Origin: Myxococcales bacterium | GTDB taxonomy: Bacteria > Myxococcota_A > Polyangia > Haliangiales > Haliangiaceae | DNA: 64,000 nt | Assembly: GCA_016708565.1 (NCBI GenBank) | Contig: JADJFN010000001.1 | Span: 476,863-540,862, forward strand | Direction: 5' to 3' | In this document: in pieces, positions 4,275 through 62,208 of the stretch | Position numbering within the stretch: the stretch's first letter is position 1 | Layout: every line of letters begins with the position of its first letter | The notes under the pieces: model-generated | Databases searched by the model: none | The model's input: only the letters and a program-made list of their open reading frames with translations | Told to the model about the DNA's origin: nothing | Translations under genes and position numbers: made by a program

Positions 4275-5459
4275 ATGTGCGACACGCTGGTGACGATCGC
4301 GCCCGGGCGCGTGCGGTTCGCCAAGAACTCCGACCGCGATCCCAACGAGGCGCAGGCGCCGACGTGGCGGCCGGCGCGCGACCACGTCGCCGGCGCGCCG
4401 CTGCGCTGCACCCACGTCACGATCCCGCAGGTCGCGCACACCCACGCGGTCTTGCTGTCGCGGCCGTTCTGGCTGTGGGGCGCCGAGATGGGCGCCAACG
4501 CGCACGGCGTGGTGATCGGCAACGAGGCGGTGTTCACCGATCAGCCGTTCACCGCCGCCGGCCTCACCGGCATGGACCTGGTGCGGCTCGGGCTCGAGCG
4601 CGGCGCCACCGCGGCCGAGGCCGTGGCGGTGATCGAGGACCTGGTCGCGCGCCACGGCCAGGGCGGCGGCTGCGGCCACGAGCACCCCGGGTTCCGCTAC
4701 CACGCGAGCTTCCTGGTCGCCGACGCCCGCGGCGCGTTCGTCGTCGAGACCGCCGGTCGCGCGGTCGCGGTGCAGGCGGTGGTGGACGCCGCGACGATCT
4801 CCAACGCGCTGACCCTGCCGGCGCTGCGCGGCCACCGCGATCGGCTGCGCTCGTGGGTGGCGGCCGCCGATCATCGGCAGGCGTGCACGCTGGCCGCGGC
4901 CCGGGCCGCCCGCGGCGTCGGCGATCTGTTCGCGGCGCTGCGCGACCACGGCGACGGCGACGACGGCGCGCGCCCGCGCTACCGCTGGCACCACGGCGCG
5001 ATGGCGGCGCCGTGCATGCACGCCGGCGGGCTGATCGCCGCGTCGCAGACCACCGCGTCGTGGGTCGCCGAGTTGACGCCGGCCGGCGCGCGTCACTGGA
5101 TCACCGCGACCGCGGCGCCGTGCTTGTCGATCTTCAAGCCGGTCGCCGTCGACGATCCGCTCGCGCTGGGCCCGCCGCCGCGCGATCGCGCCGACGCCGG
5201 CCTGTGGTGGCAGCACGAGCGCCTGCACCGCCGGGTGATCGGCGACGCCGCGTGGTGCCGGACGATCGCCGCCGAGCGCGACGAGGTCGAGCGCCGGTGG
5301 CTGAGCGCGCCGCCGGCGCCGACCGCGGCCTTCGCCGAGCACCGCGCGCTGGTGGAGCGCTGGCTGGCGGCCAGCGCGGCCGCGCCGGTCGCCGACGATC
5401 GGCCGTGGTACGTGCGCCGCTACTGGGCGGAGCGCGACCGCCGCGCCGGCCTGGCGTGA
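4275..5459 (+). CDS. C69-family / secernin-like Ntn-hydrolase (dipeptidase-like).
   Basis: N-terminal Met-Cys (MCDTLVTIAPG...) is typical of self-processing Ntn hydrolases of the C69/secernin type (nucleophile Cys2). Also AHGVVIGNEAVFTD. Confidence 0.65.
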   Translation: MCDTLVTIAPGRVRFAKNSDRDPNEAQAPTWRPARDHVAGAPLRCTHVTIPQVAHTHAVLLSRPFWLWGAEMGANAHGVVIGNEAVFTDQPFTAAGLTGMDLVRLGLERGATAAEAVAVIEDLVARHGQGGGCGHEHPGFRYHASFLVADARGAFVVETAGRAVAVQAVVDAATISNALTLPALRGHRDRLRSWVAAADHRQACTLAAARAARGVGDLFAALRDHGDGDDGARPRYRWHHGAMAAPCMHAGGLIAASQTTASWVAELTPAGARHWITATAAPCLSIFKPVAVDDPLALGPPPRDRADAGLWWQHERLHRRVIGDAAWCRTIAAERDEVERRWLSAPPAPTAAFAEHRALVERWLAASAAAPVADDRPWYVRRYWAERDRRAGLA

Positions 5460-5469
5460 GCCGGTTCCG

Positions 5470-5545
5470 TTTGGAGGGTTTGTCGCCAAACCCTCCCCCG
5501 CGGGGTCACGCCCCCGCGGGGCCCCCGCCCAAGACGCGAGACTCC
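5470..5545. repeat. Palindromic double-hairpin repeat element, copy A (REP/MITE-like).
   Basis: GGAGGGTTTgtcgccAAACCCTCC hairpin, then CCCCGCGGGG-tcacg-CCCCCGCGGGG, then CCCAAGACGCGAGA. Sits between the convergent C69 gene (stop 5459) and the GFA gene (stop 5595). Related copies at 46336-46413 and 61179-61412. Confidence 0.7.
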
Positions 5546-5594
5546 CGGGCGACGTTCCGGAGGTGCGGCGTCACGGCGCGATGAGCCGCCCCGA

Positions 5595-7206: not shown

Positions 7207-8586
7207 ATGCGGCGCGTCCTCCTCGGCTCGGCGATCTTCCTGACGGCCTGCGGCGGCGACGACGGGGCCACGCCGCCGCCGCTGTGCACCGGCGCCTGGC
7301 ACGTGTGCGGCGGCCACCTGCGCGACGCCACCGGCCGGGCCGCGATCCTGCGCGGCATGAACGTCGGCAAGAAGGAGGCGCCGTACCTCGACTTCCACGC
7401 CGCCGCCGACTTCGCGCGGATGCGCGACGACTGGGGCATGAACGCGGTCCGCTTCTACTTCCCGTGGGCTGCGGTCGAGCCCAGCCCCGGGCAGTACGAC
7501 GACGCGTTCCTGGATCAGGTGCGGCAGCGGCTCGACTGGGCGGCCGCGGCCGAGGTCGACGTCGTGCTCGACCTGCACCAGGACGTCTACGGCGAGGGCT
7601 TCGGCTTCGACGGCGCGCCGCGCTGGACCTGCGACCAGGCGCGCTACGACGCGTTCGTGCCGGCGGCGCAGTGGCCGCTCAACTACCTCGAGCCCAACGT
7701 CAAGGCGTGCTTCGACGGGCTGTGGAACGACCCGGCGCTGGGCGAGGCCCACGCCGCGGCGTGGCGCCACATCGCGGGCCGGCTCGGCGATCACCCCGCG
7801 GTGATCGGCTTCGACGCGATCAACGAGCCGCACTGGGGCAGCCACGACCTGTTCACCTTCGAGCGCGAGCGGCTGCAGCCGTTCTACGATCGCGACGTCG
7901 CGGCGGTGCGCGCCGTCGCGCCGCGCTGGGTGGCGTTCCTCGAGCCGGCCGGCTCGCGCAACATCGGCATCCCGACCTCGCTGCAGCCGTTCGCCTACCC
8001 CGACGTGGTCTACGCGCCGCACGCCTACGACTCGGCGGCCGAGCAGCAGCAGGGCTTCGACGAGGCGCGCCGGGCGGCGTTCCTCGAGAACGTGGCGCTG
8101 CAGCGGACCGAGGCCGAGGCGCTGGGCACCGCGCTGTGGATCGGCGAGTACGGTGGCCTGGGCACCGATCCCGGCATCGTGCCGTACATGGACGCCGCCT
8201 ACGACGCGGCCAGCGCGGTCGCCGCCTCGAGCATGTACTGGGCCTACAGCAGGGGCGGCGGCTACTCACCGCTCGACGCCAGCGGCGCCGAGATCGCGCC
8301 GCTGGTGGGCGCGATCGTGCGGCCGTACCCGGCGCGGATCGCCGGCGACCCGATCGGGTGGACCCACGACGAGGCCGCGCGCACGCTGACCGTGCGCTAC
8401 CGCCCCGACGCGCGGATCGCGACGCCGACCGAGCTCGTCGTGCCGCCGCGGGTGTCGACCGCGCCGGCGGTGACCTGCGATGGCTGCGCGAGCGAGCGGC
8501 GCGGCGACACGCTGCTGATCACCGCGCCGCCGGCGGTCGACGCCGCGGGCGTGGCGACGGTGGTGGTGACGCTGCCCGCGCCGTGA
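7207..8586 (+). CDS. Glycoside hydrolase family 5 (cellulase/mannanase-type) lipoprotein.
   Basis: Signal peptide and lipobox MRRVLLGSAIFLTAC. GH5 acid/base FDAINEPHWG (NEP) and nucleophile WIGEYGG. Confidence 0.8.
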   Translation: MRRVLLGSAIFLTACGGDDGATPPPLCTGAWHVCGGHLRDATGRAAILRGMNVGKKEAPYLDFHAAADFARMRDDWGMNAVRFYFPWAAVEPSPGQYDDAFLDQVRQRLDWAAAAEVDVVLDLHQDVYGEGFGFDGAPRWTCDQARYDAFVPAAQWPLNYLEPNVKACFDGLWNDPALGEAHAAAWRHIAGRLGDHPAVIGFDAINEPHWGSHDLFTFERERLQPFYDRDVAAVRAVAPRWVAFLEPAGSRNIGIPTSLQPFAYPDVVYAPHAYDSAAEQQQGFDEARRAAFLENVALQRTEAEALGTALWIGEYGGLGTDPGIVPYMDAAYDAASAVAASSMYWAYSRGGGYSPLDASGAEIAPLVGAIVRPYPARIAGDPIGWTHDEAARTLTVRYRPDARIATPTELVVPPRVSTAPAVTCDGCASERRGDTLLITAPPAVDAAGVATVVVTLPAP

Positions 8587-17694: not shown

Positions 17695-18932
17695 AGGGAG
17701 TCATCGTCCACGGCGCCCTGCTGGGCGTGATGCTGGTCTACGGCTACCGGACCTGGACCAAGGAAGAGGCCACCAAGCCGGTCGGCGGCGAGGTGGTGAT
17801 GTGGACCCGCGGCGAGGCCGATCTCTCCAAGATCGAGTTCCAGACCGAGAACCGGCTGGTGCGCATCGAGCGTCGGGGCACCGGCGCCGCCGCGTACTGG
17901 TGGGGCAGCGAGTCCAAGACGATCAAGAAGCCCAAGCCGATCGATCCGCGGCCGCCGGCTGATCCCGCCGCGCCGCCGCCGCCGCCGCCGGCGCCGGAGT
18001 TCGTCGACGAGACCACGACCACCGAGTTCCCGATCGGCCCCGAGGGCGAGAAGCTGGTGAAGCAGTTCGCCCGGATGCGCGCGATCAAGTCGGTGGGCGT
18101 CCCGAAGGACGACAGCAAGAAGGACTACGGCCTCGCCGACGCGCAGACGTCGATCGCGGTGGTGTTCGCCGACGGCGCCAAGACGCTGGTGGTCGGCGGC
18201 CGGGTGTTCGGCGGCGGCGATCGCTACCTGCAGGACCTCGACACCAACAAGGCCTTCGTCGTGCTCGGCAGCCTGGTCGCCACCCTCGAGGGCGGCGAGC
18301 CCAGCCTGCGCCCGACCGACCTGCGCTCGTTCGACCCGAAGGCCGCGACCGCGGTCGAGGTGGCGGCCAAGGACAAGAGCAAGCGGGTGCAGAAGATCAA
18401 GGTCAAGGCGCCGGCGCCCGACGCCGACGATCCGCACGCGCCGCCGCCCAACGCCGACGAGCTGATCGAGACCTGGGGCCAGGGCGCGACCGCCGACACC
18501 GTCGTCGCCAACTTCCTCGACAAGCTCGAGAAGCTGCGCCCGACCAGCTACGACGCGAAGCTCGACGTCGCGTCGCTCGAGCTGGTGGTGGCCGCGACGT
18601 ACAAGGACGGCAAGGGCGCGCAGCTCGGCACGATCAAGCTGTACCGCCGCACCACGCCGGCCCCGGCCGACGCGACGCCGCCGACCCCGCCGGCCGACCC
18701 GACCAAGCCGGCGACGCCGGCCGCGCCGGCCGACCCGACCAAGCCGGCGACGCCGGATCAGCCGCCGGCCGACCCGACCGCGCCGGCGACGCCGGATCAG
18801 CCGCCGGCCGCCAAGCCGGCCGACAAGGTCGAGTACTTCCTGTGGACCGAGCGCACCCGCGTGCCCGGCCTGCTGACCACGATGGCCGCCGAGCGCGTCG
18901 AGCAAGACGTGCCCACGCTGTTCGGTCAGTAG
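17691..18932 (+). CDS. DUF4340-like protein with Pro/Thr-rich tandem repeats.
   Basis: Start MKGVIVHGALLGV overlaps the GldG stop (ATGA). This is the typical fourth gene of GldAFG-type operons. The C-terminal region carries ADPTKPATP-type repeats. Confidence 0.65.
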   Translation: MKGVIVHGALLGVMLVYGYRTWTKEEATKPVGGEVVMWTRGEADLSKIEFQTENRLVRIERRGTGAAAYWWGSESKTIKKPKPIDPRPPADPAAPPPPPPAPEFVDETTTTEFPIGPEGEKLVKQFARMRAIKSVGVPKDDSKKDYGLADAQTSIAVVFADGAKTLVVGGRVFGGGDRYLQDLDTNKAFVVLGSLVATLEGGEPSLRPTDLRSFDPKAATAVEVAAKDKSKRVQKIKVKAPAPDADDPHAPPPNADELIETWGQGATADTVVANFLDKLEKLRPTSYDAKLDVASLELVVAATYKDGKGAQLGTIKLYRRTTPAPADATPPTPPADPTKPATPAAPADPTKPATPDQPPADPTAPATPDQPPAAKPADKVEYFLWTERTRVPGLLTTMAAERVEQDVPTLFGQ

Positions 18933-45923: not shown

Positions 45924-46328
45924 ATGGACCTGCGCGCCATCCTCGAACGCAGCCGCACCGTCGCCGTCGTCGGCATCCACCACGACGCGGCGCGGCCGGC
46001 GCACTACGTGCCGGCCTACCTGCACGACCACGGCTACCGCATCCGCGGCGTCAACCCGGCGCTGGTCGGGCGCGTGCTGTTCGGGCACCCGGTGGTCGCC
46101 ACCCTGGCCGACGTCGACGAGCCGATCGACCTGGTCGACGTGTTCCGCCGCGGCGACGCGCTGCCCGACCACCTCGCCGAGCTGCTGGCCTGCCCGGCGC
46201 CGGTGGTGTGGTTCCAGCTCGGCATCACCAACGATGCGGTGGCGGCGGCGCTGACCGCCGCCGGCAAGCAGGTGGTGCAAGATCGCTGCACGCTCGCCGA
46301 GCACCGCCGGTTGGGGCTGGGCGCATGA
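45924..46328 (+). CDS. CoA-binding domain protein (YccU/CoA_binding_2 family).
   Basis: RTVAVVGIHHDAARPAHYVPAYLHDHGYRIRGVNP matches the small CoA-binding Rossmann protein. Confidence 0.7.
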   Translation: MDLRAILERSRTVAVVGIHHDAARPAHYVPAYLHDHGYRIRGVNPALVGRVLFGHPVVATLADVDEPIDLVDVFRRGDALPDHLAELLACPAPVVWFQLGITNDAVAAALTAAGKQVVQDRCTLAEHRRLGLGA

Positions 46329-46335
46329 GCTCTCT

Positions 46336-46413
46336 GGAAGGGGCTTTCGCAAAGCCCCTTCCCCGTCGGGTCATGCCCCGACGGGGCCCCAACCCGAAAC
46401 GCGAGATCGTGTT
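46336..46413. repeat. Palindromic double-hairpin repeat element, copy C (inverted orientation).
   Basis: GGAAGGGGCTTTcgcAAAGCCCCTTCC hairpin, then CCGTCGGG-tcatg-CCCGACGG, then CCCGAAACGCGAGA. Its reverse complement aligns almost base for base with the 61343-61412 copy. Confidence 0.7.
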
Positions 46414-46508
46414 CGGGGATCCGCGTGCTGATCAACCCGGTGATCGCCGCGCGCCTGCGCGGGCCGATCCGCGTTGCTCCCAGGCCCGGCATCGGGCATG
46501 GTGCCAGG

Positions 46509-59549: not shown

Positions 59550-60242
59550 GTGACGCTGCGCGCGATCCTCTTCGATCTCGATGGCACCCTGGTCGACAGC
59601 GAGGCCGACTACGCCGAGGCCATCGCCCGCTGCGTCGCCCGCGAGTTCGCGATCACGCTCACCGCCGCCGATCGCGCCTACGGCACCGGCCGCTCGTGGG
59701 TCGCGATCCACGCGTACCTGCGCGAGCGCTACCCGGCGCTGGCCTGGGATCGCGACGCGTTGATCGCCGCGACCGCCGCCGAGAGCCGGGCGCTGTTCGC
59801 CGAGCGCGGCATCACCGTGCTCCCCGGGGCCCACGCCGCGGTGGCGCGGTTCGACGCCTTCGCCCGGGGCCTGGTGACCGGCAGCTCGCGGGCCGAGGCC
59901 GGGCACATGCTCGAGCTCCTGCGCCTGAGCGACGCGTTCGCGATCACGCTGTGCGCCGAGGACGTGCCGCGGTCCAAGCCGGCGCCCGACGGCTACCTGG
60001 CGGCGTGCGCCCACCTCGGCGTCGCGCCGGCCGAGGCGCTGGTCATCGAGGACTCGGCGGCCGGGTGCGCCGCCGGCCGCGCCGCCGGCTGCGCGGTGGT
60101 CGCGGTGCGGGCCGGCAACCGCGGCGGGCAAGATCAGGGCGCGGCCCACGTCGTGGTCGACACCCTCGACGCGATCACCATCGAGCTGGCCCACGAGGTG
60201 GCGCGATCGGTCGACCGTGGGTATGGTGCGCCGACGGCATGA
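59550..60242 (+). CDS. HAD-superfamily hydrolase (beta-phosphoglucomutase / phosphatase-like).
   Basis: LRAILFDLDGTLVDSE (motif I DxDGT), LVTGSSR (motif II), SKPAPDGY and VIEDSAAG (motifs III/IV). GTG start. Its stop overlaps the next gene's ATG (ATGA). Confidence 0.75.
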   Translation: MTLRAILFDLDGTLVDSEADYAEAIARCVAREFAITLTAADRAYGTGRSWVAIHAYLRERYPALAWDRDALIAATAAESRALFAERGITVLPGAHAAVARFDAFARGLVTGSSRAEAGHMLELLRLSDAFAITLCAEDVPRSKPAPDGYLAACAHLGVAPAEALVIEDSAAGCAAGRAAGCAVVAVRAGNRGGQDQGAAHVVVDTLDAITIELAHEVARSVDRGYGAPTA

Positions 60243-61171
60243 AGCTCCCGCCGCGCGTCACCGTGTACGAGGTCGGGCCCCGCGATGGCCTGCAGAACGA
60301 GGCGCGGCACGTGCCGACCGCCGAGAAGATCGCGTTCATCACGGCGCTGATCGACAGCGGCCTCTCGCGCATCGAGATCACCAGCTTCGTCAGCCCCAAG
60401 TGGATCCCGCAGCTGGCCGACGCCGCCGAGGTCGCGCGCGGCGTGCCGCGCAAGGAGGGCGTCGTGCTGTCGTGCCTGGTGCCCAACCGCCGCGGGCTCG
60501 ACACCGCGCTGGCCGCCGGGATGCGCGAGGTCGCGGTGTTCATGTCGGCGTCGGAGACGCACAACAAGAAGAACGTCAACAAGACGATGCGCGAGACGCT
60601 GGCGGCGTTCGCCGACGTCGTGCCGCCCGCGCTGGCCGCCGGCGTGCCGGTGCGCGCGTACCTGTCGACGTGCTTCGGCTGTCCCTACGAGGGCGACGTC
60701 GATCCCGCGGTGGTGGTCGAGCTGTGCCGCGAGCTGCGGGCGATGGGCGTCTACCAGGTCTCGGTGTCCGACACGATCGGCGTCGCCAACCCGGCGCAGG
60801 TCGAGGACGTGCTCAGCCGGGTGCTGACCGAGGTGCCGCTCGAGGCGGTGGCGGTGCACTTCCACGACACCCAGGGCACCGCGCTGGCCAACTGCGTCAC
60901 CGCGCTGCAGCTCGGCGTCACCACGATCGACTCGTCGGTCGGCGGCCTCGGCGGCTGCCCCTACGCGCCCGGCGCCTCGGGCAACCTCGCCACCGACGAT
61001 CTGGTCGGCATGCTGCACTCGATGGGCATCGCGACCGGCATCGATCTCGACAAGCTGGTCATCGCCGCGCGCCAGGCCGCCACGTTCATCGGCCACGACC
61101 TGCCGTCGAAGTTCCTCAAGGCCTACCTCGGCAAGCAGGCGCGCGCGCGCCGCCGCGCCGAGCTGGGCTGA
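60239..61171 (+). CDS. Hydroxymethylglutaryl-CoA lyase.
   Basis: TVYEVGPRDGLQNE (catalytic Arg/Asp), EITSFVSPKWIPQ, VHFHDTQGTALAN and GLGGCPYA are canonical HMG-CoA lyase motifs. Confidence 0.9.
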   Translation: MKLPPRVTVYEVGPRDGLQNEARHVPTAEKIAFITALIDSGLSRIEITSFVSPKWIPQLADAAEVARGVPRKEGVVLSCLVPNRRGLDTALAAGMREVAVFMSASETHNKKNVNKTMRETLAAFADVVPPALAAGVPVRAYLSTCFGCPYEGDVDPAVVVELCRELRAMGVYQVSVSDTIGVANPAQVEDVLSRVLTEVPLEAVAVHFHDTQGTALANCVTALQLGVTTIDSSVGGLGGCPYAPGASGNLATDDLVGMLHSMGIATGIDLDKLVIAARQAATFIGHDLPSKFLKAYLGKQARARRRAELG

Positions 61172-61178
61172 GACATGC

Positions 61179-61412
61179 GGAGGGTTTCTCGCGAAACCCT
61201 CCCCCCGGCATTCGCCGGGGCCCCCCTCCCAAGACGGCCCAGATCCTCGGCGCGTCTGTCCGAGCCTTTCGCTGGGGCCGAAACGGCCGAAGGCCGGATC
61301 CGCGTGGACCCGGCCTTCGTCTCGCAGTCTCCTGTGCCCCGTGCCGAACGCTCTCGCGTTTCGGGTGGGGGCCCCACGTCTTGTGGGGGAGGGGCTTTGC
61401 GAAAGCCCCTCC
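61179..61412. repeat. Two copies of the palindromic double-hairpin repeat element in opposite orientations (B1 61179-61260, B2 61343-61412).
   Basis: B1 is GGAGGGTTTctcgcgAAACCCTCC...CCGGcattcgCCGG...CCCAAGACGG. B2 is CCGAACGCTCTCGCGTTTCGGG...GAGGGGCTTTGCGAAAGCCCCTCC, the reverse-orientation form matching the 46336-46413 copy. Both lie between the convergent genes ending at 61171 and 61426. Confidence 0.7.
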
Positions 61413-61425
61413 AGGAAACAGGATC

Positions 61426-62208
61426 TCAGCCGCCGATCTGCCACTCGCCGCCGACGCGGACGTAGACGTTGCCGCGCAGCTCCCAGCGCACCGGCGCCCA
61501 GCGGTGGCCGGCCTTGGCGCGCTCCCAGTGGCCGGGGACCCACTCGTACTGGCGGGCCTGCTCGCTCCACGCGTAGGCGCCCTCGATCCAGACGTAGCCG
61601 CGGCGCGCCGCGCCGGGGTTCTCGACGCGCGGCGGGGGCGGCGCCATCGTCGGACCGACGATGACGACCTGGCCGCCCGACGAGATCACCGTGCCGGCGC
61701 CGTTGGTGGCGATCACGCCGCCCTGGCCGTTGTTGACGATGACGCCGCCGTTGCCGCCGACCACGCCGCCATTGCCGCCCACCACCACGCCGCCGCCACC
61801 GGGCTGGTCGTAGCGGTGATCCTGGTTGTGCGGATCGATCACGGTGCCGCCGCCGCCGCCGGTGACGACCACGCCGCCGCCGACCACGACCCAGCTGCCG
61901 TCGACCCAGTGCCAGCTACCGTTGCGCGGCTCCCAGCGGCCGTCGTTCCAGGCGTAGCCAGAGCGCTCGCGCTCCCAGTGGCCATCGACCCACACCCACT
62001 GGCCGCCCTGCCACTGCCAGTTGCCCTTGACCCACACGTGGCCGCTCATCGGCTGCGGGTTCTCGGCGCGCGGGGGCGGCGGTTGATCGTAGGCGACGAC
62101 GGCGCCAGTGGCGATGCGGCCCCGGGCCGTGACGACGCAGGCGGGGAGCGTGGTGCCGAGCAGGGCCGCGAGGCCCAGGGTCGACAGGATCCGACGGGTA
62201 CGGTTCAT
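61426..62208 (-). CDS. Lipoprotein with Trp-rich YXWGXW-like repeats and Gly-rich tracts.
   Basis: LAALLGTTLPAC lipobox. Repeats HVWVKGNWQWQGGQWVWVDGHWE, YAWNDGRWEPRNGSWHWVDGSW, YVWIEGAYAWSEQARQYEWVPGHWE. Central GGGVVVTGGGGG/GGNGGV tracts. Confidence 0.65.
   Translation of the reverse strand: MNRTRRILSTLGLAALLGTTLPACVVTARGRIATGAVVAYDQPPPPRAENPQPMSGHVWVKGNWQWQGGQWVWVDGHWERERSGYAWNDGRWEPRNGSWHWVDGSWVVVGGGVVVTGGGGGTVIDPHNQDHRYDQPGGGGVVVGGNGGVVGGNGGVIVNNGQGGVIATNGAGTVISSGGQVVIVGPTMAPPPPRVENPGAARRGYVWIEGAYAWSEQARQYEWVPGHWERAKAGHRWAPVRWELRGNVYVRVGGEWQIGG

Follow-up and report, generated by a model that had tools for sequence, protein, structure and literature searches.

What occupies the 254 nt between the convergent HMG-CoA-lyase-like and WXXGXW-repeat genes (positions 61172-61425), and why does it begin at their stop codons? 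An earlier reading of the 64,000-nt stretch of DNA analysed here (the window), made from the sequence only, had placed two inverted copies of a palindromic repeat in this spacer and one further copy at each of two other loci, and had taken them for an undescribed family of REP/BIME-like or MITE-like elements able to act as bidirectional terminators. The window has a G+C content of about 74% and is identical to part of the metagenome-assembled genome (MAG) GCA_964269055.1 and to several metagenome contigs. Homologues of its HMG-CoA lyase with 77-92% identity are named Kofleriaceae.

All four copies were present where they had been reported (5470-5545, 46336-46413, 61179-61260 and 61343-61412). 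The length of about 75-90 bp assigned to them was too short, as copy B runs to 46440 and the spacer holding copies C and D is repeat-related over its full length. With revised limits the copies extend over 5460-5554, 46329-46440 and 61172-61277 on the plus strand (A, B and C) and approximately 61320-61425 on the minus strand (D). Read in order, each unit has a head, two hairpins (H1 and H2) and a C-rich tail, after which there is usually one more hairpin (H3). Units are approximately 75-150 nt long and non-coding, with no conserved reading frame. The head (7-14 nt) is A+T-richer than its surroundings and has the consensus TGAGAYCYTKG, GTGAYC.. or GTAACC.., with T(G/A)A 6-8 nt from H1. H1 is a perfect hairpin of 10-12 pairs with the loop CGC or TCGC (23-27 nt overall), in which the outer GAGGG/CCCTC and the loop core TCG are invariant. 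H2 contains 5-10 pairs (16-27 nt overall), the tail reads CCCCMACCCRARACG followed by CGAGA or GCCCRGA, and H3 pairs the tail with a variable partner. Three subfamilies were distinguished, between which H1 and H2 vary jointly; CGTC is confined to H2 of subfamilies II and III. The features of the window copies are as follows.

5457..5459, plus strand: TGA stop of gene 4275-5459, with copy A beginning immediately 3' of it
5460..5554, plus strand: copy A, subfamily III; head 5460-5472, H1 5473-5496, H2 5497-5520, tail 5518-5541, H3 5526-5551
46326..46328, plus strand: TGA at the 5' edge of copy B, the present stop of the CoA-binding gene 45924-46328
46329..46440, plus strand: copy B, subfamily II, long form; head 46329-46335, H1 46336-46362, H2 46363-46384, tail 46383-46406, H3 46393-46417, 3' extension ending GATCAACCCGG at 46440
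46441..46443, plus strand: TGA, the native stop in the strain without copy B, kept at the 3' end of copy B
61169..61171, plus strand: TGA stop of the HMG-CoA-lyase-like gene 60239-61171, with copy C directly after it
61172..61277, plus strand: copy C; head 61172-61178, H1 61179-61202, H2 61203-61220, tail variant 61218-61243, H3 61232-61257
61278..61320, no strand assigned: tail-like CCGAAACGG and a hairpin at 61289-61318 (GAAGGCCGG...CCGGCCTTC)
61321..61425, minus strand: copy D, subfamily I; head 61425-61413, H1 61412-61388, H2 61387-61373, tail 61375-61352, H3 61372-61336
61426..61428, minus strand: TGA stop (TCA on the plus strand) of the WXXGXW-repeat gene 61426-62208

All four copies lie immediately downstream of a stop codon, as had been stated, and four of the 56 genes called in the window carry a copy. 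Copies A and C/D occupy the two convergent-gene sites of the sequence-only reading, and copy B lies between co-directional genes. The gene upstream of copy A has homologues named C69 dipeptidase/secernin. Copy A may extend to 5581, in which case a TGA follows at 5582-5584; a TGG (61273-61275) is found at the right junction of copy C, and the likeness of copy D to the other copies fades at about 61320. The segment 61278..61320 looks like a tail/H3 unit of the C-type subfamily standing alone, and its hairpin has no T-tract on either strand. The assignment of this hairpin to copy C was weakened by its presence in a strain that lacks copy C.

Several details of the structure first proposed required correction. 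In the GGAAGGGGCTTT hairpin the loop has 3 nt (CGC) rather than 4 nt. The H2 motif CCGNCGGG...CCCGNCGG, thought to be common to every copy, was found in A and B, whereas H2 is CCCCGGC-ATTC-GCCGGGG in copy C and CCCCAC-AAGAC-GTGGGG in copy D. The conserved tail was confirmed as a pattern, although copy C carries the variant CCCAAGACGGCCCAGA, and the near-identity claimed between copy B and the reverse complement of copy D holds for H1 and the tail but not for H2. When aligned, copies A-D have a mean column identity of 71%. The tail pattern GGGGCCCCNNCCCRARACG matched the window four times against 0.23 matches expected, a number reached in 0 of 100 shuffles, and the H1 pattern matched the four loci only (0.00 expected). 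An nhmmer profile built from 105 family members recovered the same four window copies and no others. RNA folding predicted H1, H2 and a third hairpin in all four copies, with z-scores between -2.3 and -4.7, and the entire C-D spacer gave a z-score of -6.1. A scan for tRNA genes found none in the window, and a scan for consensus promoters and terminators found none around copies C and D. A repeat search across the window returned mainly similarities between G+C-rich coding segments; at 18672-18795 the coding sequence itself repeats every 9 nt (CCGACCCGACCAAGCCGGCGACGCCGG...), probably as a Pro/Thr/Ala-rich linker.

The repeat proved to be dispersed well beyond the window. Confinement to three loci had been named as the result that would refute a family, and scanning with the tail pattern in one genome per species gave at least 110 loci in other genomes, nearly all from three Myxococcales/Kofleriaceae MAGs. 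At least 275 copies were present in 1.67 Mb of related Kofleriaceae DNA. By contrast, an H1+H2 core scan of metagenome contigs returned only 94 stretches from a handful of samples; the family was absent from 48 kb of other Kofleriaceae DNA, and neither a scan of viral contigs nor BLAST against phage and plasmid records gave a match. The family is limited to a narrow clade of uncultured Kofleriaceae. Its description as novel also stood: Rfam gave no match at the gathering score for the whole window and only sub-threshold matches at chance level around copies C and D, and literature searches returned no description of it. There was no orthologous overlap between the window and the loci from the three MAGs; L030, which at first appeared orthologous to the HMGL locus, was ruled out by alignment. 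Two short contigs that carry the element have been assigned to bins of unrelated phyla, L038 under the label Phycisphaerales and L042 under the label Ideonella. As L038 shares 93-94% identity with the Myxococcales loci L025 and L076, both are probably mis-binned. The element also lies within about 150 nt of the contig end in at least 15 metagenome contigs (L131, L141, L143, L145, L146, L151-L153, L155-L157, L159, L165, L172 and L186), and the repeat seems to break short-read assemblies.

Many family copies are nearly identical, and the tail was kept in 68 of 71 copies ascertained without the tail pattern. Head+H1 units, tail+H3 units and whole elements are all repeated in tandem, and some copies have an extra extension of about 35 nt that ends in GATCRACCC. 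We also observed a long variant with an additional module between a truncated H1 and H2/tail, at L070:~4546-4640 (minus strand), L056:~5076-5170 (minus), L105:220-300 (plus), L089:6620-6704 (minus) and L022:910-1026 (plus). This module consists of AGGTGGAGG, 3 nt, GTG, five codons and TGA (GCATGAACC), that is, a Shine-Dalgarno-like site and a 6-codon mini-ORF closed by another TGA. In a more distant relative (L119:2940-3020; HMGL 86% identical in amino acid sequence) an imperfect H1-like hairpin directly follows a TAG stop. It shares the TGTCGCCA loop region with H1, is accompanied by a second hairpin and may represent an older or diverged branch of the family.

The most unusual feature of the family, overlooked earlier, is its strict co-orientation with the upstream gene, whose stop codon it either abuts or supplies. 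Genes were called by codon usage. Training used the genes called on a locus that matches part of the window exactly, and was followed by retraining on the fetched loci plus the window. A co-oriented gene 3' end lay on the 5' side of 122 of 127 arrays, within 20 nt in 113 of them; 96% of arrays were in sense orientation and none of 130 overlapped a gene. The downstream neighbour was the start of a co-directional gene in 76 cases and the end of a convergent gene in 49. The distance from the stop codon to H1 ranged from 0 to 15 nt with a peak at 6-8 nt, and the same peak was found in the 71 copies ascertained independently of the tail. Two copies sit behind tRNA 3' ends. Where two arrays occurred in a single locus (≤8 kb), 11 pairs had the same and 11 the opposite orientation, indicating that orientation tracks the gene and not the direction of replication.

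Genes with a copy ended in TGA, TAG and TAA in 90, 13 and 10 cases, compared to 472, 151 and 22 for genes without one, such that TAG is under-used before the element (11.5% vs 23%). The tail-independent set gave 44 TGA, 6 TAA and 5 TAG stops. Since stop TGAs constitute only 22% of the TGAs outside genes, a TGA target alone does not explain the placement. Before a co-directional gene, the spacer minus the element had a median length of 121 nt, compared to 29 nt in element-free pairs, indicating that the element avoids tight operon junctions; copies were found mostly at the ends of transcription units. Genes of every kind carry copies, at a frequency of approximately 7%. Few canonical hairpin-plus-T terminators occur in these genomes, with 7% of the gene ends that lack the element having one. 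Our early impression that they often lie downstream of the element was corrected by the count, which gave only about 6 of 113 cases; in these cases the element is not the sole 3' signal.

Comparison of filled and empty sites established that the family is mobile, with copies gained or lost between strains and between sister species. A locus with flanks 99.2% identical to the window (L210) lacks 61173-61277, corresponding to copy C, and retains the hairpin at 61289-61318 and copy D. Its empty site reads GGGC TGA G CGCCA CCGAAACGG. Two more distant orthologues with conserved gene order (L117 and L118) lack both C and D; in L117 (2935-3200; HMGL orthologue 90% identical in amino acid sequence) the spacer holds a different tandem repeat of about 80 nt in 3.5 copies. 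Copy B was missing from L123-125, in which the CoA-binding protein is 98% and the flanking DNA approximately 90% identical. There the empty site is ...GGCGCG CCGCTGCCGCGT TGA TCGCCGCGCGCC, compared to ...GGCGCA TGA [112 nt] TGA TCGCCGCGCGCC in the window, so that the native stop (46441..46443) and its downstream flank TCGCCGCGCGCC now lie at the far end of the element. The TGA at 46326..46328, which belongs to the 5' edge of the element, has no counterpart at that position where copy B is missing. The CoA-binding gene now ends at this TGA and is four codons shorter; the four extra C-terminal residues are present in all element-free orthologues. No empty site was obtained for copy A, the nearest non-identical homologue being only 76% identical.

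Two sister genomes that are about 93% identical provided five further filled/empty sites. At a sixth, a convergent spacer (L111:7286-7361 vs L092:6163-6342), the copy lies on the opposite side in reversed orientation: the full element follows the left gene in one genome and the right gene in its sister. An additional short variant with only H1 and tail is found behind the right gene of L111. Comparison of L197:~820-899 with L018:~7418-7511 identified an exact 78-nt insertion, CATGTCTG-H1-H2-...ACGCGAGAC, with no duplication and with TGA at neither junction. This copy, an exception to the stop-codon placement, is antisense and in frame (26 codons), a few codons into an oppositely oriented ORF that starts MRTYGFGGLCLALALASAC (read by eye) with a signal-peptide-like sequence; it recalls the in-frame palindromic elements of Rickettsia. 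The other young polymorphic copies examined in detail had the canonical place and orientation. L069/L133 gave clean junctions with TGA at both, and TGA was present at both ends of copy B, L074 and L069, with one-base variants in copy C (TGG) and L108 (GGA). T(G/A)A is preferred at the insertion point, but not absolutely, and a strict TGA target-site duplication as a universal rule is contradicted by L197. The empty counterpart of the L074 site (L059:5427-5467) contains three copies of a 14-nt unit, TGATCGCTGACGAC, each beginning with TGA. The initial description of a palindromic, dispersed, high-copy, non-coding, mobile repeat at gene 3' ends was supported.

Having established mobility, we asked how well the hairpins are conserved. 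Counted against a structure supplied by hand, 93% of the cells in the 105-sequence alignment were paired, and 92 cells had changed on both sides compared to 32.8 ± 3.8 in shuffles. Sliding the structure reduced paired cells to 38-73%. RNAalifold applied to the MAFFT alignment returned a partial structure only, with subfamily III shifted by one column. At least eight variants with perfect pairing were found for H1, and likewise for H2, and the stems contained 14 mismatches among 1926 pair cells. These compensatory changes between subfamilies indicate that the hairpins are under selection. A test for an excess of G-U wobbles, which would favour an RNA over a DNA hairpin, had no power with only 14 mismatches, and the near-absence of G-T pairs from the stems means that an RNA hairpin looks the same here as a single-stranded DNA hairpin. 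Nine pairs of orthologous copies were compared between the sister genomes, some of them with a rare H1 variant in common; H1 and H2 showed about one change in approximately 330 nt, whereas coding flanks differed by 5% and the 6-nt head by about 28%. Conservation of these inherited resident copies therefore exceeds that of the genes beside them. At two further orthologous sites the copies belonged to different subfamilies, indicating replacement, and repeated conversion or re-insertion could account for part of the hairpin conservation.

Hundreds of copies directly behind stop codons and in the direction of the gene look like a mobile, ready-made gene-end module. The explanation that we prefer, and consider on balance probable, is that the family is a REP-like, mobile, non-autonomous element retained as a 3'-UTR hairpin cassette. 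We infer transcription, 3'-end formation and an effect on mRNA or translation as follows. Transcription would make the element the opening ~80-150 nt of the 3' UTR, and its stacked stable hairpins may work as RNA that defines and protects the mRNA 3' end, either by blocking exonucleases or by acting as a U-tract-free site of pausing or termination; this role would be set in genomes with few canonical terminators. With H1 starting 6-8 nt after the stop codon, the element may also affect the terminating ribosome, as do E. coli REPs located <16 nt from the stop, which are described as stalling ribosomes and lowering expression (Liang et al. 2015, as cited in PMC12306157). Copying would depend on the hairpins and be carried out by an enzyme acting in trans, presumably favouring T(G/A)A at the insertion point and often leaving it at both element ends. 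A bolder version, which we offer tentatively and regard as rather doubtful, is a new mobile element whose insertion reads gene polarity, entering at or just behind T(G/A)A stops in sense orientation and bringing its own stop and a three-hairpin 3' UTR. Insertion might then target the strand exposed by transcription at gene ends or involve an RNA-linked step, and if this version were true the family would be a transposable gene-end cassette, acting as terminator or stabiliser for roughly 5-10% of genes.

The observed mobility and the near-identity of many copies would equally be expected of a purely selfish element in which the hairpins serve transposase recognition without host function and the position merely reflects tolerated insertion sites. 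Hairpins that co-vary by subfamily are what a protein-recognised structure should produce. However, old copies of such an element need no preservation, and inherited H1 and H2 were nearly unchanged while the head diverged by about 28% and coding flanks by 5%. Tolerance also predicts antisense and stop-distant copies, leaving 96% sense orientation unexplained, and the young polymorphic copies other than L197 were already in the canonical place and orientation. We consider this explanation unlikely. A site acting at the DNA level for a dimeric protein (a nucleoid protein, gyrase or a regulator), spread by recombination and not acting as RNA, would suit the perfect palindrome of H1 with its invariant outer GAGGG/CCCTC and loop core TCG; BIMEs bind IHF and gyrase. 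Yet a symmetric duplex site requires neither a fixed gene orientation nor a position 6-8 nt from the stop, the free co-variation of the inner H1 stem and all of H2 better fits a folded strand, and an asymmetric tail was retained in 68 of the 71 independently ascertained copies, which makes such a site very improbable. A stable hairpin 6-8 nt after UGA is also the geometry of known read-through and SECIS stimulators, and one frame of the element has no stop codon. That the family is a recoding signal promoting UGA read-through or selenocysteine insertion is nevertheless scarcely credible: copies are also found behind TAA and TAG stops and behind tRNA genes, the spacing of 0 to 15 nt means that the downstream frame is not kept, approximately 7% of genes of all kinds bear copies, and the head evolves fast.

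We also considered an origin as true REPs moved by a RAYT (TnpA-REP), or as a derivative of an IS200/IS605-type single-strand transposon for which a gene at another genomic site supplies the Y1 transposase. Insertion of IS200/IS605-type elements is oriented by the replication strand, whereas the family's orientation follows genes and flips within a few kb. The palindrome lacks an adjoining GTAG or CGTC and its units are direct rather than REP/iREP. A RAYT/IS200-like gene had been proposed as a thing to look for; tblastn with RAYT, IS200 and IS608 protein queries (three hand-typed Y1 transposases) gave no match at E<0.1 in 1.67 Mb of element-rich DNA. Pointing the other way, the hairpins are subterminal, terminal inverted repeats are absent and insertion tends to occur beside T(G/A)A. 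The 10-12 bp perfect palindrome of H1 with its 3-4 nt loop has the size of group-3 REPs (PMC8266576), the layout is mosaic with tandem units, and GTAG REPs likewise supply stops (PMC3733652). We judge this origin distinctly unlikely, and return to the retained 3'-UTR cassette as the preferred explanation.

The family is an example of a small repeat that still moves actively while purifying selection preserves the copies already in place, which bears on the long-running question of whether REP-like repeats are parasites or host tools. The 96% sense orientation together with stop adjacency points to a targeting rule beyond TGA that is open to experiment. In genomes of about 74% G+C with few canonical terminators the family may be a major definer of mRNA 3' ends, and it could provide a candidate portable 3'-UTR part for engineering high-GC bacteria. 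Insertion alters C-termini, copy B having shortened its protein by 4 residues. For metagenomics, the many copies at contig ends suggest that the element breaks assemblies, and it can travel with mis-binned contigs.

How does the family compare to known element classes? REP/BIME elements are defined by a GTAG tag, REP/iREP pairs and an associated tnpA-REP gene (PMC8266576), and the GTAG tetranucleotide lies 5' of the REP palindrome (PMC8266576, PMC3733652), where GTAG REPs often provide the TAG stop of the upstream ORF (PMC3733652). The repeat shares with REPs a palindrome of 20-50 nt, high copy number and a mostly extragenic location. Neither GTAG nor CGTC was found directly 5' of the palindrome in the head consensus, and there were no REP/iREP pairs, the repeated units being in direct orientation; inverted pairs arise only where two convergent genes each bear a copy, as at C/D. 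Without tag or inverted pairs it is not REP/BIME as defined in PMC8266576, and the membership first suggested is not supported. The family is nonetheless like REP/BIME with RAYT from E. coli, Pseudomonas and Stenotrophomonas (SMAG) in being short, extragenic, high-copy and palindromic at gene 3' ends, in its mosaic and tandem layout, in strain turnover and in that the stop of the upstream gene may be supplied (PMC3733652). Unlike REP/BIME, it pairs two different hairpins with a conserved single-stranded tail, is 96% sense with about 90% of copies hugging a stop codon (vs 11-50% of E. coli REPs), and yielded no RAYT in 1.67 Mb. Small, non-coding and polymorphic for presence/absence, it also resembles MITEs. 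The ends of copy B (GCTCTCTGG... and ...GATCAACCCGG) and of the L197 insertion (CATGTCTGG... and ...ACGCGAGAC) do not pair, however, and in the absence of terminal inverted repeats it is not a classical MITE, contrary to the sequence-only reading. No gene enclosed by an H1...tail pair, as in an autonomous element, was found in the loci examined.

The family is similar to palindrome-associated elements derived from IS200/IS605 in having no terminal inverted repeats, subterminal hairpins, a single orientation and a preference for insertion by a short specific sequence, with clean insertion without duplication being possible (L197); it differs in that its orientation follows transcription, TGA is often found at both ends, and no TnpA/TnpB partner with family ends was seen. 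MIRUs of mycobacteria are high-GC, intergenic, tandem, oriented with flanking genes and touching the upstream stop, and in these respects the family is alike: high-GC intergenic tandem units, gene-oriented, at the upstream stop. However, MIRUs are translated mini-ORFs inside operons, whereas the family, built of hairpins and lacking a conserved frame, stays away from tight operon junctions. BOX elements of pneumococcus, ERIC and Correia elements are modular with variable unit number, are transcribed with their neighbours and have a proposed effect on mRNA stability; the family is likewise modular with variable unit number. Correia and ERIC elements have terminal inverted repeats and a TA duplication, and we know of none of the three types being tied to the stop codon in a single orientation. 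A U/T-tract after a hairpin was found neither in the window copies nor across the family, so the element is not the canonical bidirectional terminator that had been proposed. Its G+C-rich hairpins at the ends of transcription units are nonetheless like those of intrinsic (Rho-independent) terminators, including the U-tract-less ones proposed for high-GC bacteria; unlike these, the family is mobile, places one sequence at hundreds of loci and combines three hairpins with a conserved C-rich linker. Given these comparisons, the small palindromic intergenic repeats are the class to which the family is best assigned, as a variant that is REP/MITE-like in spirit.
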